Positions 3,517-61,066 of a stretch of DNA of 64,000 bases are shown piece by piece. The DNA is from Lytechinus pictus (Eukaryota): positions 12,834,001 to 12,898,000 of the forward strand of contig NC_087256.1 in NCBI RefSeq assembly GCF_037042905.1, written 5' to 3'. Every line of letters begins with the position of its first letter. Position 1 is the stretch's first letter. The translations under genes and the position numbers were made by a program. Under the pieces are notes generated by a model. It saw nothing but the letters and a program-made list of their open reading frames with translations. It was not told where the DNA came from and made no database searches.

Positions 3517-3816
3517 TCTGATGATAATAAATTTGGGGGAAATTCCCCGTGTGCCTAGTCTATTTCGACGTCTTCATATGATCATTTTAATTCCTTTCGA
3601 CGACAGTATTATATAAAATGATATTTCATATGTTTTTATTCAATATCAAAAATATATATTGAAGTATTTTGAACAGATTTGTCGATTTTTGTTGTTGTTG
3701 TAATGAAAATAACAAGATCAACCTCTATTTTATTTGTATCAACTCTTGAAGAAGACTAACCAGGCGTGACACGAAAACAAACAAAAACAGAATCCACCAT
3801 TATTTTGCACCGACGT

Positions 3817-5595
3817 ATGAGGCGCCGAATGTACCAATATTATATAGAACAATTATTTGTTATATAATCATTATTTATTAAATAATAACTATTATTTATA
3901 TATAATTTACATTTTATTTGTAAATAACTACTATTATATAAAATATCATTTCTAATTATTTATATATAATTCCAAGTAATACTTCATTATTTGTAAATAA
4001 TAATAGTTCGACATTCCATTATTTATAAATAATGATTATTTGTTTTTCATTATTTATAAATAATGATTATTTGTTTTTCATTATTTATAAATAATGATTA
4101 TTTGTTTTTCATTATTTACAAATAATGATTATTTGTTTTTTCATTATTTATAAATAATGATTATTTGTTTTTCATTATTTATAAATAATGATTATTTGTT
4201 TTTCATTATTTACAAATAATGATTATTTGTTTTTCATTATTTATAAATAATGATTATTTGTTTTTCATTATTTATAAATAATGATAATTGGTTTTTCATT
4301 ATTTATAAATAATGATTATTTGTTTTTCATTATTTACAAATAATGATTATTTGTTTTTCATTATTTATAAATAATGATTATTTGTTTTTCATTATTTATA
4401 AATAATTTGTTGAGTTTTCCATTATTTATAAATAATGATTATTTGTTAAATAATGAAAACGTCTACTTCATTATTTATAAATAATTTTTTCGAGTGCACC
4501 ATTATTCTCATTATTTATAAATAATCATTATTTAATGTTCGAGTTTTCCATTATTTATAAATAAAGATTATTTGTTAAATAATGAAATATCTACTTCATT
4601 ATTTATAAATAATAATTTTGTTTCAATATCCCATTAATCATTATTTATAAACAATTTTTACAGTTTGCCATTATATACAAATAATCATTATTTATTAAAT
4701 AATGCCATTATTTATTAAATAATGCCATTATTTATTAAATAATGGTTATTTGTATATAAATAATGATTATTTATAAATAATGGATATTGAAACAAAATTA
4801 TTATTTATAAATAATGAAGTAGATATTTCATTATTTAACAAATAATCTTTATTTATAAATAATGGAAAACTCGAACATTAAATAATGATTATTTATAAAT
4901 AATGAGAATAATGGTGCACTCGAAAAAATTATTTATAAATAATGAAGTAGACGTTTTCATTATTTAACAAATAATCATTATTTATAAATAATGGAAAACT
5001 CAACAAATTATTTATAAATAATGAAAAACAAATAATCATTATTTATAAATAATGAAAAACAAATAATCATTATTTATAAATAATGAAAAACCAATTATCA
5101 TTATTTATAAATAATGAAAAACAAATAATCATTATTTATAAATAATGAAAAACAAATAATCATTATTTGTAAATAATGAAAAACAAATAATCATTATTTA
5201 TAAATAATGAAAAACAAATAATCATTATTTATAAATAATGAAAAACAAATAATCATTATTTGTAAATAATGAAAAACAAATAATCATTATTTATAAATAA
5301 TGAAAAACAAATAATCATTATTTATAAATAATGAAAAACAAATAATCATTATTTATAAATAATGAAAAACAAATAATCATTATTTATAAATAATGGAATG
5401 TCGAACTATTATTATTTACAAATAATGAAGTATTACTTGGAATTATATATAAATAATTAGAAATGATATTTTATATAATAGTAGTTATTTACAAATAAAA
5501 TGTAAATTATATATAAATAATAGTTATTATTTAATAAATAATGATTATATAACAAATAATTGTTCTATATAATATTGGTACATTCGGCGCCTCAT
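3817..5595. mobile_element. foldback-type transposon: ~0.83-kb inverted arms with internal 31-bp tandem arrays
   Basis: ends atgaggcgccgaatgtaccaatatt...aatattggtacattcggcgcctcat; flanking direct repeat accgacgt at 3809-3816 and 5596-5603; unit cattatttataaataatgattatttgttttt. Confidence 0.92.
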
Positions 5596-5779
5596 ACCGA
5601 CGTACCGGTATTTCATTTGAATCTGGTACAATAAATTCGTAGCCAATATCTGGAATGTAGTATTGCAAATGTTGCTTGTATCGTTCACTATACTCTACTG
5701 CTATCCGTCATGGCTTCATGAATGTGCAAAATATTAATCCTGAATAGTATTTTGTCGTGATAATGAAACTATTTTCTTC

Positions 5780-44667: not shown

Positions 44668-45070
44668 TAGGCAGTGCTGCACCAGCCCGAGTTTGCTCAA
44701 GCTCGAGATTTTAGCCCGATCAGCCCTCTTCGCGATTAATCTCGAGATTCAAGAAACCCCATCTCCACCAGCGCAAGAAGAGCAATTCGTGCTCGAGCGA
44801 TGCATTACGGTCTGACGCTGTGAATAAATAATCCCGCGTCGAATCTCAAGTGCGTCTGCACCTGTGAATTAGCAGGATAGTTCGTAAATAGCGCACTTTG
44901 CAAATAATACTAAGTTGACGTAGGATTGAAATTTCGAGATTAATCCAGCAAACTATCGCGATGATTGCATCTCCATTACAAATAATCTTGAGATTGTTCA
45001 GATCGGGATAATTTGCCGGATCAGAAATAGCGCGATTAATTGAAAACTCGGGCTGGTGCAGACGGCCCTA
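44668..45070. mobile_element. MITE (copy 1)
   Basis: ctgcaccagcccgagttt / aaactcgggctggtgcagacggcccta; internal aatctcgagatt palindromes. Confidence 0.85.
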
Positions 45071-45213
45071 GTTTGAGGGGATGGGATGGTACGATATGCA
45101 TGCTTGGTGAAAATGGTAACTTGACTTTCAAATGGGTTGGCAGTACAGTCTGAATGAAGATTAGGTCAAAGCATATTGCCCTAGTACAGGGTACAAGTCA
45201 TGTTGACCCTATG

Positions 45214-45660
45214 AGGCTGTTCTCACTACGTTCCTATAACTGGTTTACTGGAAACTAGTTTAACGCGTAGTGAGAACGGTCAAAGCGGTCTTGGAAGCGA
45301 TCTTCCAAACCAGTTTGGAAAACCACCTCGCGATGTAGTTTTCAAGATCGCTTTGCCTCGTTAAAGTGGTTTTAGCGTAAGTGAGGATACAACCGTTCTT
45401 CGGGAAGCGATCTTCACACATTTTGAGCGCGCTACTCCACACGACAGGTGTAGAATACCTATGCTGCGGTTTCGAATTTCGCGCGAAACGTGTCACCCCA
45501 CTGAGAGCGTTTCCATAGCAACAAGAGCGCTTTACGTGAAGTGATTTTGAGAACCACTTTCGTGTGATCAAGTGGGAACGCTAGCTAAGCGATCTTCCAA
45601 AGTGGTTTCCTGAATCGGTTTCCAGTAAACTAGTTTTAGAAAGCGTAATGAGAACGGCCT
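45214..45660. mobile_element. MITE
   Basis: TIRs aggctgttctcactacg...gtttactggaaac / gtttccagtaaac...cgtaatgagaacggcct; flanking duplication ctatg (or tat if the ends are gaggc/gcctc). Confidence 0.85.
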
Positions 45661-46266
45661 CTATGACTCCTATCTAGATTAGGCCACATGCCATTATTGA
45701 TACTTCAATTACTTTAGGCTTAAATGGTTCTTTAGTAATCATAAGAAGAAAACAGGATAGACAGACAAATAACCTCAGTAATGTACTGGAAAAAAAAAGT
45801 AGGCCTAGTGTATGTGGGCTGATATCAAAACTTTTATGCTTTCCAAATTTTACCCTCTGACAATTTTCAGTAATATGATTTACCGACAGCTGATAACTTG
45901 ATATCTAAAGTGCATAGTTCTGCTATGTAAGAGGCAAAATATTTAACGAAAATTTCGTCTCCAGGGGTTCTTATGAAATGAGTTATTTCCTTCCTCTTGA
46001 GTAATATTCAATATAAAACTTCACTTATGACCACAAAATATAATCACAAACCCTCCACCAGGAGCATCACCATACTTCTAGTTCTCAATTGAATGAGAAA
46101 ATCAACCCTGACATCGAGTGGTTTACAAGCAGAAAAATGAAACAATCAAAAATCCACAAATAAATAACAGTTTTGATTTTTAAAGTAATTTTGAATTATC
46201 ACATAACAGCAGCACTCTATATGTCATAATTCTATAAATTTTAATTTCATCAGAAAGTGCATCCCT

Positions 46267-46620
46267 CGATCGGCCCTCTTCGCGATTAATCTCGAGATTC
46301 AAGAAACCCCGTCTCCACCATCGCAAGAAGAGCGATTCCTGCTTGAGCGAAGCATCGATGCATTATGGTCTGACGCCGTGAATAAATAATCCCGAGTGCA
46401 TCTGCACCTACGAATTAGCGCCATATTTCGTAAAATAGCGCGCTATTTTGCAAATAATCCCAAGTTGACTTGGGATTGCAATCTCGAGATTAATCCTACG
46501 AACTAGCGCGATAATTGCGTCTCCATTGCAAATAATCTCGAGATTGTTCAGATCGGGATAATTTGCCGGATCAGAAATAGCGCGCTAATTTGAAAACTCG
46601 GGATGGTGCAGACGGCCCTA
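46267..46620. mobile_element. MITE (copy 2 of the 44668 family, left end missing)
   Basis: same internal sequence ccctcttcgcgattaatctcgagattcaagaaacccc and the same right end ggtgcagacggcccta. Confidence 0.88.
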
Positions 46621-47721
46621 GTGATAGAAACCATGAAAATAACCTGCTCTTCTATTCCACACATCTGGCAGACACATTTCATCTATTTGGTTTGGTAAGA
46701 TAAGAAAAGATACTTTCATACATCACTCTACTGAAAGACCTATGATGGAAGTGCTTTGAGCCAAGTTTTGCTTCTGTTGCTACCTGAAGTGCCATATTTC
46801 CCCCCATGTTCCAGCTAACTTCCAACAGGATATCAACTCTTTCAAGCCCCCTTCTTTATCTATCATCACGTCTCTGTCACAACCATCATCAACTATGTCA
46901 AGTTATTTTCAGAAAAATGAGAAGTATGATACATGTACATGTATATCTGTGAGGGAGGCAAACTTAGTGCCCCCTTAATATCCACACCCTCCCCCTCCTC
47001 CATACAGCTAAAAGTACACTTTTCAGATAGCAGTTATCATTTTTTTTTTAATTGATTTGATTTGAAAAGTTTCTGGAATACTTCTTATGGCAGCCAGGTG
47101 CCAAATTGTGAACACTACAAGAAGCACTAAAGAATTTAAAATCAGATTAACATTTAAATGTGGAGATAAAAAAAAATTGTCATTTAAAAAAAAAACAGAT
47201 CAACTTTAGAAATCCCCTGGAAAGAAAACAACATGGGATTAAAATTTGTTGACGAATTCTAGTCTTAGATATTTATCATCTGTCTTGTGTCATGTCTTGT
47301 TTTGTCTGTTACTCTGTTATATGATATATTATATCAGTTCATGACAATGTTGTATTTTGCTGTATTAATAAAAGCAATAATGCAAAAATGTGTCAAGTCA
47401 ATGTCCCACTTTTCTGTACAGTCACCTCTAATGTACACATTTACAGAACTACAATATCACCTGCATGAGGTCATCTAAAGGGGGTGGATAATAAGCATCT
47501 GGGGAATAGGGCGTCTGAGGAAAGAGAAGTTCAGCTCAGAATGAACCAAAATACCTTGTATGATCATGATACGATCACAGTCAAAACAAATATCACTACC
47601 TGTAGTATTTTCAAAAGGTTATTTCCCTTTCAATTGGAGCTGAAATAACAATCCACAAATCTATTGGATACTACATGATAGTATCTACCAACAGAGACAC
47701 TACAAAAGCTTCACTCTATCT

Positions 47722-48954: not shown

Positions 48955-49201
48955 GGTCTCACAACTTGCATAATAATGGACTGGGCTTAGTTTTTTTATT
49001 TTGAAAAATAACAGATCCCATAAAAGAAATGAATAGGCCTAAATCAATCTTTGAATGATAAAAACTTCTAGAATTACCACAATACTAAACCGTTAATCAT
49101 CAACAAGTGGTCTTTCCACACAGAATTCAACAAACCTGAGATGCTCAGTACAAGTTACAATAGAGCGACCCAATTATTTTCTAGCAGGATTCGTTCATAG
49201 T

Positions 49202-51021
49202 TGTAGCCCCTCTTATGGTGCTACATAATTGGAGACATAAGTTAAAAGAGATTAGTCTCTATTAATTTTGTATTGTAGTATTTGTACCCATATGTATATA
49301 ACATACAGAGAGTGAGGAGAGAGTGAGATGATTTGGATGACCTTTTGTACATACTGGGAGAGAGAGAGCGAAAGAGAGAGCCAATGGTCAGTTCTGGCTA
49401 GCGTGAGTAAGGGTCAGGTGGTCCTTATTCTCAGAAAATAATGACGTGAATGACATGAATGACGTAGTAGTATTTTGGGGAAAAGTTGATGGACTCTTCC
49501 ATCTTTGCTACCCTAAAGGGGTAAGCAATAATTGTTTACTGGTTTTTGTTTGTGAAAAGAGATGACCAAGGATCAAAAAGTATTACTTGTTATAAATATA
49601 CACACCCCTTCCCAAAAATAATGGTATTGTCAAAAATACCTATATATAGAGCTTCTGGAGGCATCCTCTTCACAACTTTTGAGATGGAGAGAGAGCATCT
49701 TCCTCCAGACATCACTTTTCAATAATTTCCGTATTTTCCTGATTCTCAGGTAAGATCCAAAGTCATCCTTCCATATTTCAGTTTATAAGATTATTTGATA
49801 ACTGATCTTATAGATTTAATTTTGAATGTTAAGTTACTTTTCCAAAATTGTCTTTTACACATTTGGCTTATTATCAATCTTCGATTGAATAATATTTAAA
49901 ATTTAGTTTTACATAACTGATGATAGATATTATTCTATAATCTACTTCTTGTTGAATGTTTGAATTTCTTATCATTGTTACTAACCATATATGATTATTG
50001 TTCATGGTGAAGCACTTTAGCACTTGTTATTTATGATTGTCTAGCAGCGCGAGCATGGTGCGAGTTTTATAGTTGAGCCTTTTGAACTTTGCGAATTACA
50101 AATTCTAAGCAAGTCGCGAATCCAAAACAACGGAACGGTATTATTCTGGTCAAGCGGATAGGCTGAGTTCCCTATCTTGCCGCGTTAATACTGTGCGGAC
50201 TCTAATGTATCTGATTAAAGACTTTCCTGAATAACATTGTGCTAAACCATTCTATTTCATTAATGATTTGATGTATTATTGTAAAATGATTTACTAATCC
50301 TAGTTGATATAAGAATATTTGAGATGAAGTTTCATAATTGATATTTAATATAAGAAATAACTAATCATGCTTTGATTAAAATGAATACACAACTTTTGAG
50401 ATGGAGAGAGAGCATCTTCCTCCAGACATCACTTTTCAATAATTTCCGTATTTTCCTGATTCTCAGGTCACTGGTCTTCTGACCATGAATGGCATCCACA
50501 TTTTACTTCTTCCTGCACTGAGACCCTCAATGTTATGTTAGTTTCAATGTCATTATGTTAGTCTTGATAACAGTAGTTGTTCAACAACTATTTGAAAGTT
50601 ATGTCCAGTTAAGTAAATTATAAGTATCATTTGAACTATATGTTCATACCCGTTCGGATAATTATGTAACCAAGAGTTACACCATATTTTTATAACTGTA
50701 AATATCATGTATATAATGTTCATTTGTTAGATTAGAATTAAAGGAACATATATCCTTTATATTATGTCTATGTTAGTTTATTTTATCGAGTTTTATTAAT
50801 TTACATTAGTTAATAACATAGTGTGAATGTTGTTGATTGATGGTGTTTGATTATGTGATGTGATTATTACAAAGTAAAATAATTACAACCATATAGTTTT
50901 ATCTAAGTTCTACCTCCGTAGACGGACAGGGTGGGGATTCTATGTATAAAAATCCTTCCGCTGCACTGTTGTTATTGTAAAGTAAAAGATCCTCCCCCAC
51001 CCAAAACGGTCCCGTGCTACA
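49202..51021 (+). repeat. 5' LTR
   Basis: direct repeat of 58456-60275; TG...CA with 6-bp terminal inverted repeat. Confidence 0.95.
49641..49680 (+). promoter_or_regulatory. LTR TATA box and predicted transcription start (~49671)
   Basis: tatatataga with tcacaact 30 nt downstream; tgacgt motifs upstream at ~49442-49466. Confidence 0.55.
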
Positions 51022-51023
51022 AT

Positions 51024-51042
51024 TGGTAGCAGAGCGAGGTTT
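51024..51042 (+). promoter_or_regulatory. primer-binding site, initiator tRNA-Met
   Basis: tggtagcagagcgaggttt, complementary to the tRNA-iMet 3' end ...CUCUGCUACCA, 2 nt after the LTR CA. Confidence 0.88.
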
Positions 51043-51749
51043 ATATTTTGTTAGTAGACTATAATATTGCTATGTCTTTGCAATTGTTAGGTTTATAAAT
51101 TGTATGACCAAAGTGATAGTATAATCCTTTTGATTATCTTTTAAATAAATGGTATTAAGGGGGAGAAGGTGTAAGTATAGGTATTGAGTGAAGATACCTT
51201 TAGGAACTCGTATATGACAGTAGTTCATTTTGTTCCATTTGTGTGTGTTATTGAAAATCCTATCTCTACACCATTTAGCTCTAGTGTTTGAGTAAGAAGA
51301 TACTTCGTAGGAGTGCATAACAGGTTACTTGGAAAATCTTTTTCTTGCATTATACTTTTGCTGCATTTGCGCGCTCACTTTTGGTTCATTCAATATAGTG
51401 GATAATTAGGGTCTAGGTATAAGACTATTCCCGATCAGGTTCTTGTTCCATCAATCTGTCATCTACTCAGTTTGATAGTACATTTGTTTTCACTCAAACT
51501 CTTTGGTAGTTGCCTTTTCTGTTGCTAGTTTTCTTTTTTCTTTCTTTCTCTCTTTGTATTATATTTTGATACTGTTTGCCTTACAGGAGCACAGTATTTT
51601 GGTGTTGAATATTTTGTCATTTTTATTTTGATATTGTTTGAGATTTGTATTTGATAGATAATTTCAGGCAATTATCTTAGGACTCTGTTCATGTTCGTAA
51701 TTTTCGTATTTTGTTAGTTATATTTCCAATATTGTTTGGTTTGTTAATC

Positions 51750-52853
51750 ATGGCTGAAGCTAATGATTTGGTTGGTACCCCCACCCCTTTTGAGGTCAAG
51801 GAGGATTCGCCTCCTCCCTCTCCCTCAGATACACTGAGTGATTTCCTTGCAGGGGCAGGGATAAGTTTTGATGAGTTGAAGCAGTTAGTTAGAGGGAGTT
51901 CTAATACCCCCCAAGGAGGTATCTCTACCCCAGAGTCATCTCAGATCCGCTTGCCGAGGCTTGGCCTCTTCTCTGGAAAGGAACCAGTTAAGCAAGGTGA
52001 AGTGGACTGGGAGACATTTCACGATGTCGCAAGGGAAATAGCCACTATGGCTGGCCTGAGCGAACAATCAAAACGTCGTGAAATAGTGACTCGCCTCCTA
52101 TTACCTGCTAAAGACTTTGCTAAGCAAGTCGCGGCAGGCACCACCTCACTCGATCTACTGGCCTATTTGGACAGCATCTATGGTGCTGTTCAAAACAATA
52201 ACCTGTTGCTTCAGGAGTTCATGGGATTGGTCCAAGGTAAGGACGAAAGACCATCGGATTTCCTGAAGCGACTCCAATTGAAGGTTAGTAGATTGGTTGA
52301 GGTGGGGGAGTTCTCCCATCAAGCAGCAACCCAAAAGTTGCTGGACAAATTCAAGCTCGGATGTCACGACGAATATATATTAACAGTAACGAATTTGCAT
52401 AACCAGATCATTGCACCCCCATTTCCTAAATTAATTAGTATTATAAGAGAGGCAGAGGCAACCAGAAATGCCAAGATGGCCCAATACAAACCCAACCCCA
52501 AAATAGTCCGTAGCTATGTGCAATTTGAGAACATGAGCTTATATCACACTGAGGAACAAAAAGAGACCCGACCAAAACACAACAAACCCCAGATAGGCCC
52601 AAATAAAGGAGCATCTCCTTCCAGTAAATCCAAATATCATCCCTCAACATCTCGTCCCAAATCTTCCCCTCGATGCCCAGTTAGGGTAATCGTGTGCTTC
52701 AAGTGTGGTGAGTTTGACCACTATCAAGATGAGTGCGAAAACCCACCAAACGAAGAGCTCAAGAATAGGAACATGGCCAAAAGAGAGGAAATTATTAAGG
52801 CATGGGAGGCAATTAACGAGCCAAAAACTGTTAGGAGTCCCCCAAACGAGTAA
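51750..52853 (+). CDS. gag: Gag, PNMA-like capsid with CCHC zinc knuckle
   Basis: first ATG at 51750 (atcATGg); RLGLFSGKEPVKQGEVDWETF; QGKDERPSDFLKRL; CFKCGEFDHYQDEC. Confidence 0.9.
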   Translation: MAEANDLVGTPTPFEVKEDSPPPSPSDTLSDFLAGAGISFDELKQLVRGSSNTPQGGISTPESSQIRLPRLGLFSGKEPVKQGEVDWETFHDVAREIATMAGLSEQSKRREIVTRLLLPAKDFAKQVAAGTTSLDLLAYLDSIYGAVQNNNLLLQEFMGLVQGKDERPSDFLKRLQLKVSRLVEVGEFSHQAATQKLLDKFKLGCHDEYILTVTNLHNQIIAPPFPKLISIIREAEATRNAKMAQYKPNPKIVRSYVQFENMSLYHTEEQKETRPKHNKPQIGPNKGASPSSKSKYHPSTSRPKSSPRCPVRVIVCFKCGEFDHYQDECENPPNEELKNRNMAKREEIIKAWEAINEPKTVRSPPNE

Positions 52854-55800
52854 AGACCCCTGTCAGTGGGTGGACGGGTGGTCGAAACAAAGAGAGGAAA
52901 AAGCGCCCTCATTGTTTGACACAAAGTTCAGATAACAATAGTAATTGTAATATTGATATCCCTGAAGGTTTAGTAGGTGAGCCCTGTGAGACTGCATGTG
53001 TAGTTGACGACATTCCCACCACCTGTCTCATAGATAGTGGGAGCGTAGTCACTACCATGCAGAAACACTTCTATGACGAACACTTAAGAGATAAGTATCC
53101 CCTTGAGAAAATAGTAGACAGAATATTTAGAATAGAAGGTGCTAATGGAAGCCCTGTAATGTACGAAGGATACATTTCCGTTCCCATTACCCTCCCAAAA
53201 GAAATTGTAGGAATCGATAGCCCTGTTAATGTGTTAGTGGTTATTGTTACTTGTCCAGTATCTTGCCCTTCCCCAATCATTGTTGGCACCAATGTGTTTC
53301 GAGGCCTTGCAAAAGCCTGCAGAGCACAGTTGGGTGCTGGGTTTCTGTCTAGATTAGACATTCCAACGACTGTTCTGGCATGTTACCAGAAGGCGATCAA
53401 AGAGGGAAAGATGGGTGACCCCATCACTGGTAAAGTTGGACACGTGAATAGTACGTTACGTAAGCCTATCACAATTCAACCCTCTGAGGTGGTAGAGGTA
53501 GCTGGAGTCCTCTGCCATACTCTGCCAGCTGGTAAGTATGAAGTGCTGGTTCAGGAAGTGGAAGGAACTCATAGAACACCAGGAATTCAGGTGCTGAATT
53601 CCATTCATACGGTGCGAGGAAGGAAGGCCAAGATCAAGGTCACAATAGCCAATAACACAAAGGCCCCTGTAACACTCCGCAATAGCCAGGTAATTGCGTC
53701 TGCATATACCTACATGTGGAGTAGGCCTTTGTCACAGGTTACTCAAAACCTGAGGCAGATGATGACTGATGATGATTTTGATGTAGATATTTCTAGCAAG
53801 TCTGTCCCTTGCTATTTCACTTCTTCACCTAGCAAGGTGAATGAGGATGATGATGAAGATGATAATGATTATGACATTGCCCCTGGTGTCCCACAAGATA
53901 TAGCCGACACCTTGCGGCAGCAGCTAGATCAGTTGGATGGATTGTTCTCCAAACATGATCTAGATTATGGTTGTGCTAAGGGCGTGGAACATAGCATAAA
54001 CATTTCTGATAAGACTCCGTGGAATGCACGAGCACGCCCAATTCCACAAAGCATGTATGAAGAAGCAAGACAGCTTTTTCAAGGTCTTTTGGATGCAGGA
54101 TTGATTAGGCCTTCAGAGAGCGCTTACAGCTCACCTGTATGTCTGGTACGCAAGAAGTCAGGAAAACTGAGGATGACAGTCGACTATCGGCAACCGAATA
54201 GGCGTGTCATTCCAGATGCGTACAGCATACCCAAGGTAGAAGACTTATTCAATTCGCTCCATGGATCAAAATTCTTCACGGTAGTTGATCTCAAAGGAGC
54301 ATTCTTTCAGATCCCACTCCGTGAAGAAGATAGAAAGTACAGTGCTTTCAACACTCCATTTGGATTGTTCGAATTCAAACGAATGCCTCAAGGACTCAAA
54401 TCGAGCCCTGCCCAAATGCAAAGAGTAGTTGAGCGTTGTCTTGGTGACTGCTCCCTCAGGGAAGCAATCGCTTATATTGATGACATTGTCATACATGCCC
54501 CATCCATTGAAGAGTGTATTGAACGCACGTCTAGAGTTCTTAGTAGGGTACGAGACTTTGGATTAACCTTAGAGAAATCTAAGTGCCATTTCCTCTATCA
54601 GACCATTTCCCATCTTGGTCATGAGATAAGTGGCCAGGGAATCCATCCATGCCCGATGAAAATTCAAGACGTGATACACTGGAAGAGGCCTGACAATGTC
54701 CAACAACTTCGGCAATGGCTTGGCTTCTGCGGGTATTACCGGAGGTTCTGCAAGAACTTTAGCAAGATCTGTAGGCCTCTGAATGACTTACTCACAGGTT
54801 TGTCAATGCCAAGGAAGAGCAAAAGTACACCATCAGAACGTTCAAAGGTAAGAAGAGCACAGCTCGAGCCATTTCGAGAGAAATGGACTGAGAGGTGCGA
54901 AGAAGCCTTTGAAAAGCTCAAAGAGATGCTCACGTCAGCACCTGTTCTTGGATTTGCAGATCTTTCCAAACCATTTGAACTTCATTGTGATGCTTCAGGG
55001 TTTGGGTTAGGAGCTGTGTTATACCAGGAACAAGATGGTGTGAAACGTGTAATATCTTATGCATCTCGAGGCTTGGGCAATTCTGAGAGGAACTATTGCG
55101 CGTGGAAACGCGAATTCCTATGCCTCAAATGGGCTGTGACCGAAAAGTTCTCCGATTATCTGTATGGTACCAAATTCTTGGTCATTACAGATAACAACCC
55201 CCTAACCTATGTCATGACATCAGCAAAGCTTGATGCTACTGGACAAAGGTGGGTTGCCAATCTATCTGTCTATGACTTTGAGATCAGGTACTGTCCTGGA
55301 AAAAACCTGAATGATGCTGACTCACTGAGTAGGAGACCAAATCTCCTCCCTGATGATGGACAAATCGAGGAGGAGGTAAATAATCAAGTTGATTTCCTAA
55401 GGTCTCGAGTCAAGGCTGTTGACCATGGAGAAGTTGATGCAATTTTCAAAGGTCACATTCATGTTCCAGAACAAAGATCTCAGAAGTCTAGAAAAGACAA
55501 GATAGCCCTGACAGAATCTGTGCCTCTCACCATTGCTACGAGCCTGGCGATGCAGCCTGCAGGTATACCTGATACTTATGTTGATGGTACCGAAGGGGAT
55601 CCTGCAATGCCAGGTATAAGTAATGCTGAGTGGCAAGAATACCAGCGTTTGGATCCAGATATAAATGCGGTAAGGAAATTTGTAGACTCACGGTCACGCC
55701 CTTCCTCGCAAGATAGGAAGCAAGCGAGCCGAAGGCTACTGATACTCTACCGTGAACTTAATAAGCTGGTTCTACACAATGGTGTTCTTTATCGAGAGGC

Positions 55801-57493
55801 GGTTGAACAGGTTTCTGGCGAGAAAAGACGCCAACTGGTAATCCCAGGTAGCCATGTTGATCAAGCCATCCATGGTATTCATGATGAATGTGGACATCTG
55901 GGTTTTGACAAGTGTGTCTCCCTCGCCAGGGCTCGATTTTATTTCCCCTTCATGGCTACTTCTATTAGAGCATGGATCGACAAATGTGATCGATGCATCA
56001 AGAGGAAGCGAAAGCAAGAGAAGGCGGAAATGGATTCAATCATAACAACTCAACCTTTGGAGCTGTTATGTATTGATTTCCTGAGCATTGAACCTGATAA
56101 TGGAGGAGTAGAGAATGTACTGGTCATGACTGATCACTTTAGTAAGTATGCTGTTGCTGTACCTACTAAAGACCAGCGTAGTAGCACAGTGGCTAAGGCC
56201 CTTTGGGACAATTTTATTGTCCACTATGGATGGCCTGCCAAGATCCTTTCTGACCAAGCGCAGGACTTCAATTCCCGCCTGATAAAGGAACTGTGTGCTA
56301 TGGCTGGTGTTGAGAAGGTAAGGACGACCCCTTATCATCCACAGTCAAATCCAGTGGAGAGATTCAATCGTGTCCTTCTTGACATGCTGGGATGTCTCTC
56401 CGACAAACAGAAGTCAGAGTGGCGGCGTCATGTAAGTACGCTTGTGCATGCGTACAATGTGTGTGAACATGACACTACGCATTTCTCACCCTACTATCTG
56501 ATGTTTGGGAGGAATGCACGCCTGCCAATTGACTTGGCCTTAGGGATAGACCCGCAGTGGTCCGTACATGATACTGACAGAACAGCATATGTCAAGGCCC
56601 TGCGTGAGCAGTTAGCCGAGGCATATGAATTGGCTGGGAGGAATATGGCCGCCCGCAGTAGTGCCAATAAACGGCACTACGATCAGAAAGCCAAGGCACC
56701 TGTCCTCGAGAAAGGTGACCATGTTCTGGTCAAGAATGTACACTTAAGGGGAAAGCATAAATTAGCTAATAGATGGGGCGATGATGTGTATGTAGTTCTG
56801 TCAAAGATGGATGACTCACCTGTTTATCGAGTGCAGAAGGTGGGTACTGACCTTGCACCAAAGGTCCTCCATCGGAACCTATTGTTGCCATATGATGGTA
56901 AACAGGAGGCAGAACAAGAGGTGAATGACCCACCTCGTGCTAAAACACCCATCACCCGCAAAAAGGCTAAGAATATGTCTAAAAAGGTGGATATCAATTC
57001 AGATGGTTCATCCAATTGTAATGATAGTGATGATGACGATAATAGTTTGTTTGTTCCGATGACTTCAGACCCAGAAGTCATATCTGTTGGCCCTTCAGAG
57101 GATAATTCATGTCAGCTTAATGATGACCCTTCTGAAAATAATTCAGAAGTTGGTGAGGACAGCATTATTAGCGACAATGAAGATAATAATTCTGAAGAAG
57201 CTGATACGGCAAGTAGGGATGGAGACGACAATATTGTTATGAACGATAATGTGATCGGTAGTGGTGAAAACCTATCAAATCCCCCTGATGTAGATATTGG
57301 TGAACTTGAGGATACAGCATCAAATGAAAATGCAGCCTCAGTGGATGAACCAACAGTGAGGAGGTCAGCCAGGAATAATAAAGGTGTAGGTCCTGATAAA
57401 CTGTCCTACAACCAGCCTGGTCAACCCATCAATTTGGATTTTAAGCTTGCGCTAGTACAGCAAATGCGAGCATTTATGACAGACCTGTTATGA
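52847..57493 (+). CDS. pol: Pol polyprotein (protease, RT, RNase H, integrase), entered by -1 frameshift
   Basis: frame open from 52835; LIDSGS, VVDLKGAFFQI, RMPQGL, YIDD, LHCDAS, ITDNNPL, H-H-C-C zinc finger, IDF...MTDHFSK...SDQ...VERFN. Confidence 0.96.
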   Translation, partial: RVKTPVSGWTGGRNKERKKRPHCLTQSSDNNSNCNIDIPEGLVGEPCETACVVDDIPTTCLIDSGSVVTTMQKHFYDEHLRDKYPLEKIVDRIFRIEGANGSPVMYEGYISVPITLPKEIVGIDSPVNVLVVIVTCPVSCPSPIIVGTNVFRGLAKACRAQLGAGFLSRLDIPTTVLACYQKAIKEGKMGDPITGKVGHVNSTLRKPITIQPSEVVEVAGVLCHTLPAGKYEVLVQEVEGTHRTPGIQVLNSIHTVRGRKAKIKVTIANNTKAPVTLRNSQVIASAYTYMWSRPLSQVTQNLRQMMTDDDFDVDISSKSVPCYFTSSPSKVNEDDDEDDNDYDIAPGVPQDIADTLRQQLDQLDGLFSKHDLDYGCAKGVEHSINISDKTPWNARARPIPQSMYEEARQLFQGLLDAGLIRPSESAYSSPVCLVRKKSGKLRMTVDYRQPNRRVIPDAYSIPKVEDLFNSLHGSKFFTVVDLKGAFFQIPLREEDRKYSAFNTPFGLFEFKRMPQGLKSSPAQMQRVVERCLGDCSLREAIAYIDDIVIHAPSIEECIERTSRVLSRVRDFGLTLEKSKCHFLYQTISHLGHEISGQGIHPCPMKIQDVIHWKRPDNVQQLRQWLGFCGYYRRFCKNFSKICRPLNDLLTGLSMPRKSKSTPSERSKVRRAQLEPFREKWTERCEEAFEKLKEMLTSAPVLGFADLSKPFELHCDASGFGLGAVLYQEQDGVKRVISYASRGLGNSERNYCAWKREFLCLKWAVTEKFSDYLYGTKFLVITDNNPLTYVMTSAKLDATGQRWVANLSVYDFEIRYCPGKNLNDADSLSRRPNLLPDDGQIEEEVNNQVDFLRSRVKAVDHGEVDAIFKGHIHVPEQRSQKSRKDKIALTESVPLTIATSLAMQPAGIPDTYVDGTEGDPAMPGISNAEWQEYQRLDPDINAVRKFVDSRSRPSSQDRKQASRRLLILYRELNKLVLHNGVLYREAVEQVSGEKRRQLVIPGSHVDQAIHGIHDECGHLGFDKCVSLARARFYFPFMATSIRAWIDKCDRCIKRKRKQEKAEMDSIITTQPLELLCIDFLSIEPDNGGVENVLVMTDHFSKYAVAVPTKDQRSSTVAKALWDNFIVHYGWPAKILSDQAQDFNSRLIKELCAMAGVEKVRTTPYHPQSNPVERFNRVLLDMLGCLSDKQKSEWRRHVSTLVHAYNVCEHDTTHFSPYYLMFGRNARLPIDLALGIDPQWSVHDTDRTAYVKALREQLAEAYELAGRNMAARSSANKRHYDQKAKAPVLEKGDHVLVKNVHLRGKHKLANRWGDDVYVVLSKMDDSPVYRVQKVGTDLAPKVLHRNLLLPYDGKQEAEQEVNDPPRAKTPITRKKAKNMSKKVDINSDGSSNCNDSDDDDNSLFVPMTSDPEVISVGPSEDNSCQLNDDPSENNSEVGEDSIISDNEDNNSEEADTASRDGDDNIVMNDNVIGSGENLSNPPDVDIGELEDTASNENAASVDEPTVRRSARNNKGVGPDKLSYNQPGQPINLDFKLALVQQMRAFMTDLL

Positions 57494-58441
57494 ACTACAC
57501 AAGTATCATATGTTATATAAGAATAGTGTGCTTGTATGTATGTTTGAGTGTTTGTTTGAAATATGACTTTTTAATTTGATGTAACCAATATGCGTCTTAT
57601 TTGTTTAAAGTCAGAATGTTTTGATAGTGTAGGATCTTTGTTACATATAGTAGTTTGTACTTGAACCTTCACGTTAATGTATGTTATTGTTAGGAACATT
57701 GTCTAAGATAGCATTACCATTATGTTTAGACATATTCTATAATTGTCATAACTTAATCTAGGATGATTAGTTAGGGCATGAGGGTGCTCAGAGGAGTTGA
57801 GAGGTAGAAGTCCACCTGCTGGCATCCTGGACGAGACCTGGATCCTGTCAGAGGCCTACCCCAGTGAGAGACAGTTCCTCTTGATGATCCCTTGGGACAA
57901 GATGACACCAGTACAGAGACTTGGTTGCTAAAACAAATGCATTGTTGAACTTGAACATTGATCATTGTCATGGGTAATCGACAGAGACACACATCAATCT
58001 TGGAATTTGATGGACTGCAACATTGTATAATAATACAAGCTGCGAACTCCAAACCAGGACAATGGTCCGGAACCCAAGCACTGTTCGTGATTTTTACTGA
58101 TTTGAGATTGTCCTTGATTAACTGATACATCAGGACCTTTTGCATAAACTATAGCGACCTCATCGTGTGCATCAGACAAGATGACATACAGAACTCTACT
58201 GCAATACTAGGATTCTGGGAATCCCTACTCGTCAGTTGCAACTGGTTGTCACACTTGGACCTGAAAGCTTTTACGCGAAACGTCATTTCATCGTTTTGTC
58301 GACTAAATACCTTTGGTATAAAGGAACTCTTGGAGATCAAGAATTATATTCGTTATTCAACTGATTGGAGCAGTTGGAATTTATCTTGATATTTTACAAT
58401 ATATGTGTATGTTTTCATTTTTTTACGGTGGTTCATTTTTT

Positions 58442-58454
58442 AAGGAGGGAAGAG
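58442..58454 (+). promoter_or_regulatory. polypurine tract
   Basis: aaggagggaagag after a T run, immediately before the 3' LTR. Confidence 0.88.
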
Positions 58455-58455
58455 T

Positions 58456-60275
58456 TGTAGCCCCTCTTATGGTGCTACATAATTGGAGACATAAGTTAAA
58501 AGAGATTAGTCTCTATTAATTTTGTATTGTAGTATTTGTACCCATATGTATATAACATACAGAGAGTGAGGAGAGAGTGAGATGATTTGGATGACCTTTT
58601 GTACATACTGGGAGAGAGAGAGCGAAAGAGAGAGCCAATGGTCAGTTCTGGCTAGCGTGAGTAAGGGTCAGGTGGTCCTTATTCTCAGAAAATAATGACG
58701 TGAATGACATGAATGACGTAGTAGTATTTTGGGGAAAAGTTGATGGACTCTTCCATCTTTGCTACCCTAAAGGGGTAAGCAATAATTGTTTACTGGTTTT
58801 TGTTTGTGAAAAGAGATGACCAAGGATCAAAAAGTATTACTTGTTATAAATATACACACCCCTTCCCAAAAATAATGGTATTGTCAAAAATACCTATATA
58901 TAGAGCTTCTGGAGGCATCCTCTTCACAACTTTTGAGATGGAGAGAGAGCATCTTCCTCCAGACATCACTTTTCAATAATTTCCGTATTTTCCTGATTCT
59001 CAGGTAAGATCCAAAGTCATCCTTCCATATTTCAGTTTATAAGATTATTTGATAACTGATCTTATAGATTTAATTTTGAATGTTAAGTTACTTTTCCAAA
59101 ATTGTCTTTTACACATTTGGCTTATTATCAATCTTCGATTGAATAATATTTAAAATTTAGTTTTACATAACTGATGATAGATATTATTCTATAATCTACT
59201 TCTTGTTGAATGTTTGAATTTCTTATCATTGTTACTAACCATATATGATTATTGTTCATGGTGAAGCACTTTAGCACTTGTTATTTATGATTGTCTAGCA
59301 GCGCGAGCATGGTGCGAGTTTTATAGTTGAGCCTTTTGAACTTTGCGAATTACAAATTCTAAGCAAGTCGCGAATCCAAAACAACGGAACGGTATTATTC
59401 TGGTCAAGCGGATAGGCTGAGTTCCCTATCTTGCCGCGTTAATACTGTGCGGACTCTAATGTATCTGATTAAAGACTTTCCTGAATAACATTGTGCTAAA
59501 CCATTCTATTTCATTAATGATTTGATGTATTATTGTAAAATGATTTACTAATCCTAGTTGATATAAGAATATTTGAGATGAAGTTTCATAATTGATATTT
59601 AATATAAGAAATAACTAATCATGCTTTGATTAAAATGAATACACAACTTTTGAGATGGAGAGAGAGCATCTTCCTCCAGACATCACTTTTCAATAATTTC
59701 CGTATTTTCCTGATTCTCAGGTCACTGGTCTTCTGACCATGAATGGCATCCACATTTTACTTCTTCCTGCACTGAGACCCTCAATGTTATGTTAGTTTCA
59801 ATGTCATTATGTTAGTCTTGATAACAGTAGTTGTTCAACAACTATTTGAAAGTTATGTCCAGTTAAGTAAATTATAAGTATCATTTGAACTATATGTTCA
59901 TACCCGTTCGGATAATTATGTAACCAAGAGTTACACCATATTTTTATAACTGTAAATATCATGTATATAATGTTCATTTGTTAGATTAGAATTAAAGGAA
60001 CATATATCCTTTATATTATGTCTATGTTAGTTTATTTTATCGAGTTTTATTAATTTACATTAGTTAATAACATAGTGTGAATGTTGTTGATTGATGGTGT
60101 TTGATTATGTGATGTGATTATTACAAAGTAAAATAATTACAACCATATAGTTTTATCTAAGTTCTACCTCCGTAGACGGACAGGGTGGGGATTCTATGTA
60201 TAAAAATCCTTCCGCTGCACTGTTGTTATTGTAAAGTAAAAGATCCTCCCCCACCCAAAACGGTCCCGTGCTACA
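58456..60275 (+). repeat. 3' LTR
   Basis: same length as the 5' LTR; no differences spotted by eye. Confidence 0.95.
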
Positions 60276-61066
60276 ATTGCTTGAGGTTTTATTTCACATT
60301 CCTAGGCAAGCTTCAGTATTGCCTTTACGTGTAACATCATAATGTTAACCTTTTGCACATTGTTCAAAGCTTATGATTGATTCTAAACGTGAGAGGACAC
60401 CAAGGTCATAACCACTTCTGATCCAGGTAGAATTACCATCATAATTCACATACATAACCATGATAACGAGAACCTAAATATAATTTTTCCAACTCGTTTA
60501 CACTGGCAAGTAAGAAAAGGAAAATATCAGTCTAATGATTTGAAACGTATAGGCCTAGACATGATTTCAAAGATTTCATTAAATTATATCATGTGAATTT
60601 ACCAGGTTGGGAAATATTACCTGTCCTTATTAAAAAAAAAAATAAAATCCAAGTAAAGTCCCCCCCCCCCCCTTCCCTGCCATCCAATACATGATGACAT
60701 CGCAATCTTCAAATCTCTCAGGTGCAGAATGATTCTGGGACTACTCACGCAGAAACTTTTGGTTGTTTATGGAGGTCAAAAAATTTCAGTAACTATCAGT
60801 TCAACAAGGATGTTGGCAACAGTGAGAGAGTTAACTTTCCGACGCCAAGGCCGAGGATGCCCTACTGTTGGCCTTGGAGATTTATTTGTGCCAATTTTTC
60901 TCTTTTTTTCCAATATTGAAATACCTTTTGGCCTGTATAGTCTACGGGAGTCACAAATATTCAGAAATCGATCAAAGACAATGATTTACATTATTAAATT
61001 ATATAATAATGGGAGAGTCAACTTTCAGGGCTAAAGTTCCTAGTTCTTAAAATCCATGGCCATCAA

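Follow-up and report, generated by a model that had tools for sequence, protein, structure and literature searches.

The LTRs of a young Ty3/gypsy (Metaviridae) retrotransposon of Lytechinus pictus with a PNMA-type gag carry one short block twice, the first copy reading as a first exon and the second ending as a splice acceptor, and comparison across the family indicates that this duplicate is renewed rather than being a one-off fossil. Splicing from copy 1 to copy 2 probably makes the 5′ end of the RNA, with strong-stop cDNA landing on copy 2 and thereby restoring the intron. We also think it likely, with somewhat less confidence, that a broad group of animal gypsy elements replicates by such a split R, the intron being rebuilt in each cycle. 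Judged by sequence comparison, the duplicate-block design is a real and recurrent LTR design within a known superfamily.

Anatomy of the element

The element lies in a 64,000-nucleotide stretch of contig NC_087256.1 (the window), and all of its features are on the forward strand. The 5′ LTR (49202–51021) is 1820 bp long, runs from TGTAGC to GCTACA and is identical to the 3′ LTR (58456–60275), also of 1820 bp. The LTR ends were fixed via the 4-bp target duplications of family solo LTRs, which rule out AGT...ATT as the termini. Such 4-bp duplications flank many family copies and none flanks the window copy. The latter retains 3-nt spacers outside its LTRs, AGT (49199–49201) and ATT (60276–60278), like an unprocessed cDNA end, and the left-hand AGT is retained at L003, L006, L012 and L024 too. 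The window copy was possibly inserted without normal end processing.

Like other Ty3/gypsy elements, it has paired TG...CA LTRs, a primer-binding site (TGGTAGCAGAG, 51024–51034), which we take to match initiator tRNA-Met, and a polypurine tract (58442–58452), and it places gag first and integrase 3′ of reverse transcriptase (RT) and RNase H in pol. The gag frame (51750–52853) matches the PNMA type (PF14893, E 9e-11) and shares 98% identity with an annotated Lytechinus pictus protein; its PNMA link comes from the Pfam match, and the RT trees contained no named reference elements. The pol frame (52835–57493) is open for 1552 aa in the −1 frame relative to gag, with Pfam matches to RVT_1 (438–598), RNase H (684–813) and integrase (1003–1169). 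No Pfam match to a protease was found in the element at 1e-3, and a DSG motif is visible. The ~950 nt that separate pol from the polypurine tract (57494–58440) contain no ORF of 150 aa and are 73% alike in L032.

In the leader behind the primer site, GTAAGT at 51171 resembles a donor, and an extended pyrimidine tract with its AG lies at about 51530–51586. Together these signals suggest a second intron, at 51171–51586, in the leader; the tract and AG are kept in the sister element L044.

The duplicated block reads as an exon and an acceptor

The exact 81-bp duplicate that had been noted in both LTRs is present with 100% identity at 49671–49751, 50388–50468, 58925–59005 and 59642–59722, with sharp limits and a spacing of 717 bp in each LTR. 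Copy 1 (49671–49751) begins downstream of a TATA-like box (TATATATAG, 49641–49649), a motif kept in 23 aligned LTRs, and ends at the donor CAG|GTAAGA. Copy 2 (50388–50468) has no upstream TATA and continues as CAG|GTCACT. The RNA start, originally placed at ~49671, moves to the A at 49672, the probable start given its YR initiator and its position 31 nt past the first T of the TATA; the distance of ~30 nt from the TATA box stands. Exon 1 would then be 78 nt long (49672–49749).

The end of copy 2 does read as an acceptor, with 14 of 18 pyrimidines followed by CAG at 50464–50466. Splicing from copy 1 to copy 2 would drop exactly 717 nt, as foreseen, in the form of a predicted GT-AG intron at 49750–50466 that comprises the spacer and copy 2 through its AG and holds 15 ATGs. 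At the motif level the signals of a spliceosomal intron, a GT donor, a pyrimidine tract and an AG, are all present, and the copy 1 donor is the sole donor-pattern match within the window LTR. The final 2 nt of the 81-bp duplicate (GT) lie past the junction and are not common to other lineages.

The two copies change together across the family

A family search of the element's own genome gave 46 matches, with 40 of 49 candidates scored, and the best 30 of the 46 were taken. Two blocks with the same limits occur at 29 of these 30 loci, the remaining one (L030) being incomplete. The duplication is therefore not due to chance, and its limits do not vary as those of a random tandem duplication would, such variation being what the original prediction had named as telling against it. 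The blocks fall into two types, A (81 nt) and B (78–80 nt), that are about 75% alike.

Within single LTRs, the two copies show on average 2.28 differences (median 1), compared with 10.25 between LTRs (n = 25; the partner LTRs L001, L004, L007 and L008 were left out, and a flank common to L009 and L022 makes these 24 strictly separate insertions). None of 100,000 permutations reached the observed within-LTR matching, and for the type-B LTRs alone (n = 16) one of 100,000 did. The flanks diverge by 7.5% in U3, 9.1% in the spacer and 8.8% in the downstream part. In the 23 LTRs that remain when L022 and L029, whose ends were not found, are also dropped, linkage between copy 1 and copy 2 is strong (r2 0.71), whereas copy 2 is linked to its own neighbours at only 0.09 and 0.09; here the 6–8 nt that precede copy 2 are far more variable than those that precede copy 1. 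Types A and B, though 25% apart, change together at both block positions. Between LTRs of the same type the block also varies little (in type A, mostly 0 differences), so selection adds to its identity. At L011 and L028 the two copies are less alike, with 6 and 9 differences, respectively.

A single LTR is discordant. In L019 the U3, copy 1 and the start of the intron are type B and the whole of copy 2 and the downstream part are type A; the end of its spacer is nearest to type B, ambiguously. L019 is likely a first-generation recombinant, as expected from transfer between two RNAs.

Among 13 further regions, one intron-less solo LTR (L031) was found, so that short forms are rare in the window family, 1 against about 25 long. 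The survey of long and short LTRs that had been proposed thus returns the three patterns foreseen: the limits do not shift, the two blocks remain matched, and short LTRs are rare. None of the LTRs surveyed was an ancestral form with a single block and its own separate acceptor. The window family was also found, with blocks at both positions, in contig sets from a second organism. At L032/L033 (G000:C2:63.25 Mb), both LTRs consist of ~115 nt of U3 fused to a G, the block and the downstream part, without TATA or copy 1, a structure that could possibly reflect a misplaced strand transfer.

The same design recurs in other lineages

The design is found with different block sequences in three further LTR types of the same genome and in six metagenome contigs, giving 10 lineages in all. 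The genomic screen took 150 integrase matches of 897 candidates, with 20 long-frame elements and 10 more regions chosen; the metagenome scan took 80 of 394 confirmed loci, and most of the remaining 74 seemingly lack a whole LTR and fall outside the scoring. The genomic types are represented by L044 (G000:C3:76.0 Mb; 86-bp block, integrase 97% identical to that of the window element), L052/L092 (73-bp block, integrase 47–48%) and L056 (60–65 bp block, integrase 47%). Five of the contigs (L186, L191, L203, L208 and L216) have an exact duplicate of 64–89 bp beside the primer site, with periods of 206–279, and in L166 the duplicate is divided between the contig's two ends. No relative turned up in the viral contigs searched.

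Blocks that bear no evident likeness in sequence have this layout in common. Copy 1 terminates at AG|GT(A/G) in all 10 lineages, and the acceptor tracts contain 11–16 pyrimidines of 18 in the nine that were scored. Each of four such LTRs contains the donor pattern a single time, where copy 1 ends, and 0 of 17 others contain it; L092 alone has it among 8 later LTR pairs. LTR limits are doubtful for L046, L054 and L100.

Short intron-less LTRs were found in all four genomic types, including both LTRs of whole elements. The L056 family has 4 long elements and 3 short ones; short elements occur in both sub-lineages and include L098, with two 231-bp intron-less LTRs. Of the insertions in the L052 family, 8 are long, 2 short and 2 partial, and the L044 family has 4 long, 1–2 short and 1 truncated. 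Variants common to both copies within an LTR are seen in the L052 and L056 families.

Trees put all design-bearing lineages on one side with weak supports (0.63 and 0.69), and the duplicate-less L046 falls among them, so monophyly of the design is unsupported. L046 (G000:C3:36.99 Mb) is a close gypsy relative (integrase 57%) whose LTR is not CA-ended and has no TGG primer site behind it. A 41-bp repeat in L209 was rejected as an instance of the design, as it has no donor and resumes after a gap. L044, L102 and L103 combine one internal region (RT 95% identical) with two LTR types, which have in common their ends and scattered motifs only and each have their own duplicate block. At L113/L116 (G000:C1:35.04 Mb), the 5′ end of an L056-family element, a partial long LTR directly precedes a short LTR.

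A cap-like G precedes copy 2 in most lineages scored

The base before copy 1 is a pyrimidine in 8 of 9 scorable lineages, and the base before copy 2 is a G in 6 of 9, each of them a lineage in which copy 1 has C. Against spacer composition this G tally has a binomial p of about 0.003, with the proviso that the lineages are related. In the tally the L056 family was scored by L106; L108 of the same family has C. All 11 long LTRs of the L052 family have G before copy 2, as do 3 of the 4 long elements of the L056 family, where the junction is ragged, and in L140, a short LTR of the L052 family, AG is inserted before the block. The window family mostly has C here, with G only in L005, L006/L007 and L032/L033. 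Reverse transcriptase can copy the cap, leaving a G.

Poly(A) signals and RNA data

A poly(A) site downstream of copy 2 was held to be needed for transfer to this copy. The window family has a candidate signal there. The preferred candidate, an ATTAAA at 50737–50742, lies 349 nt past the start of copy 2 and is kept in 22 of 23 LTRs, and the sister LTR type L044 has AATAAA at the matching place (+354). A second candidate ATTAAA (50375–50380), just before copy 2, is kept in 18 of 23. In two relatives, L052 and L056, AATAAA lies 12 and 9 nt upstream of copy 2, and an RNA end well beyond this copy is thus not required. Depending on lineage, the signal is before, inside or after copy 2 or was not found; a signal always placed just before copy 2 was rejected because the position varies and the later ATTAAA is better kept in the window family. 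Use of the 50737 signal would give the window family an R of about 370 nt, favouring copy 2. R would be short in L052 and L056, where splicing would strip the 5′ end of its AATAAA; an R of 15 nt is known (PMC12789967).

No RNA set was listed as carrying the stretch. Three raw RNA runs under the same species label yielded 38, 19 and 11 reads, among which neither splice joints nor pile-ups at a start or end were seen. Short reads give no splice joint here because a spliced 5′ end reads the same as copy 2 onward. Four contig sets presumed to be RNA cover the LTR from end to end and look DNA-like. The one long skip in them (49704–50450) was rejected as splicing, since the sequence includes U3 and agrees with a short LTR of the genome that resembles L031.

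A probable split R that rebuilds its intron

In the model that we favour, the RNA would begin at A 49672 in copy 1 of the 5′ LTR. The copy 1 donor would then be joined to the AG that ends copy 2, taking out 717 nt and leaving an RNA that consists of the block followed by the downstream LTR. The 3′ LTR would keep its intron, probably for want of a cap beside its donor, and the RNA would end in or after copy 2. We infer that the sparing of this intron works through dependence on a nearby cap. Folding gives this step no support: the donor is predicted to be less open in its 3′ context in 3 of 9 lineages and equally or more open in 6 of 9, and no consistent masking of the 3′ LTR donor was predicted across the nine.

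Minus-strand strong-stop cDNA, comprising the downstream LTR and exon 1 and sometimes an extra C copied from the cap, would anneal to copy 2 of the 3′ LTR. Extension through the spacer, copy 1 and U3 would restore the long LTR, with copy 2 overwritten by exon 1. Landing on copy 1, or splicing of the 3′ LTR, would yield intron-less short LTRs as by-products, and an L019-type recombinant would arise when the two RNAs differ; strand transfer between RNAs is known (PMC12789967). As such, the block would be retained as first exon, acceptor and R region combined, and the benefit may be a spliced mRNA and, in some lineages, loss of the 5′ poly(A) signal. That spliced 5′ ends could transfer to copy 2 and rebuild the long LTR was part of the original prediction, and this proposal is supported: the three patterns that it leads one to expect were found, and so were the likely recombinant L019 and the same design in nine other lineages. 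Short forms make up 1–2 of 6 in L044 despite its long tail, compared with 1:~25 in the window family, so the preference for copy 2 is not fully accounted for by the length of homology.

Alternative explanations

A reading without splicing seems unlikely to us. RT that copies the unspliced 5′ end would jump from copy 2 to copy 1, the shortened cDNA would land on copy 2, and the donor would only bind U1, suppressing early polyadenylation as in foamy viruses. Deletion between direct repeats by RT occurs, and such jumps would also produce homogenisation, the cap-like G and the short forms. U1 at the R donor does suppress 5′ polyadenylation in foamy viruses (PMC3694450). Jumping, however, leaves unexplained both the exact end of the block at a donor in 10 lineages and the pyrimidine tract and AG at the block end. 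Jumps should also leave switches within the block, whereas in L019, the one case available, copy 2 is type A throughout.

Less likely still, the donor might splice mainly to leader acceptors (about 51587 or 51670) and give a translation-only mRNA, with copy 2 matched by other means. The pyrimidine tract and AG at ~51530–51586, kept in L044, fit such splicing, but the leaders of L052 and L056 are short and without a tract, yet have the same duplicate, and leader splicing would not carry copy 1 sequence into copy 2. Such splicing may occur alongside the favoured split R as an alternative splice.

An old internal duplication kept alike by chromosomal gene conversion, or by selection on a repeated regulatory motif, is largely refuted and we give it a very low probability. 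Conservation of the block within a type agrees with it, and recombination between copies could yield short LTRs. Against this, types 25% apart switch together at both places, conversion tracts would not end at a start site and a donor, the two LTRs of a single element can both be short, and G is found before copy 2; moreover, the layout is common to blocks without evident likeness. Least probable of all is the fossil reading of the original prediction, in which spliced strong-stop cDNA was appended once and followed by ordinary U3-R-U5 copying: both limits coincide with RNA landmarks, yet the copies should have drifted like the flanks (7.5–9.1%) and instead co-vary across the family, copy 2 seemingly having been rewritten from copy 1 repeatedly, so that it is refuted as the whole story and too weak a reading, although the origin of the duplicate may fit it.

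Relation to known systems

In the textbook LTR a single R stretch stands at both RNA ends (PMC12789967). In the window element, by contrast, splicing would generate the 5′ R, which would pair with the second, internal copy; the comparative data, namely homogenisation, linkage and L019, point against a single colinear R. Neither "splice" nor "internal repeat" occurs in the accessible portion of a survey of LTR structure (PMC3601003). A literature search whose coverage mostly excluded subscription journals and repeat-database notes turned up no account of LTRs with a duplicated first exon.

Three systems come close. The Penelope pseudo-LTR has a 46 bp first exon and an intron near the RNA start, whose removal abolishes reporter expression (PMC2377424), and so resembles the window element in keeping a short first exon and an intron near the RNA start of a retroelement. 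Penelope differs in having a GIY-YIG endonuclease and pseudo-LTRs that come from tandem insertion, not reverse transcription, and the part of that report at hand does not mention a duplicated exon (PMC2377424). The window element has an integrase, true LTRs and no GIY-YIG match.

The foamy virus major donor lies in R, upstream of the poly(A) signal, and works at the 5′ end but not at the 3′ end (PMC3694450). At the motif level the window element has the same order, with its donor at 49750 and candidate signals at 50375 and 50737. The structure that masks the foamy virus 3′ donor in a U3-dependent manner has no consistent counterpart in folding predictions of window-type LTRs, and the accessible text on foamy viruses mentions neither a duplicated exon nor an LTR-internal acceptor (PMC3694450).

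Spliced transcripts contained within LTRs have been described for maize LTR retrotransposons, with the claim of first evidence of LTR-internal introns (bioRxiv 10.64898/2026.05.08.723830). Those transcripts are non-coding, end inside the LTR and, as far as the available text goes, have no exon duplicate, unlike the window element; in that text "strand transfer" has 0 occurrences in the main body and survival of the intron is not addressed (bioRxiv 10.64898/2026.05.08.723830).

That a sequence has passed through RNA is classically proved by its loss of introns (PMC12786077). If the split-R model is correct, the return of an intron after its removal from the copied RNA changes the U3-R-U5 rule, and LTR retrotransposons would own a standing way of keeping a true intron through reverse transcription. 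The design suggests how such elements could obtain spliced mRNA and how the L052 and L056 families could avoid a stop in the 5′ LTR at AATAAA. The duplicate would further offer a DNA-only readout of RNA start, first exon and cap in unannotated elements, and a simple signature for screening repeat libraries.

Other repeats in the window

A large inverted repeat (326 nt, 100%) surrounds 31-bp satellite arrays of opposite orientation at 3815–5597, resembling a foldback element. Direct repeats at 44717–46622, 90–93% alike and 1550 bp apart, are possibly an old LTR pair or a tandem duplication.
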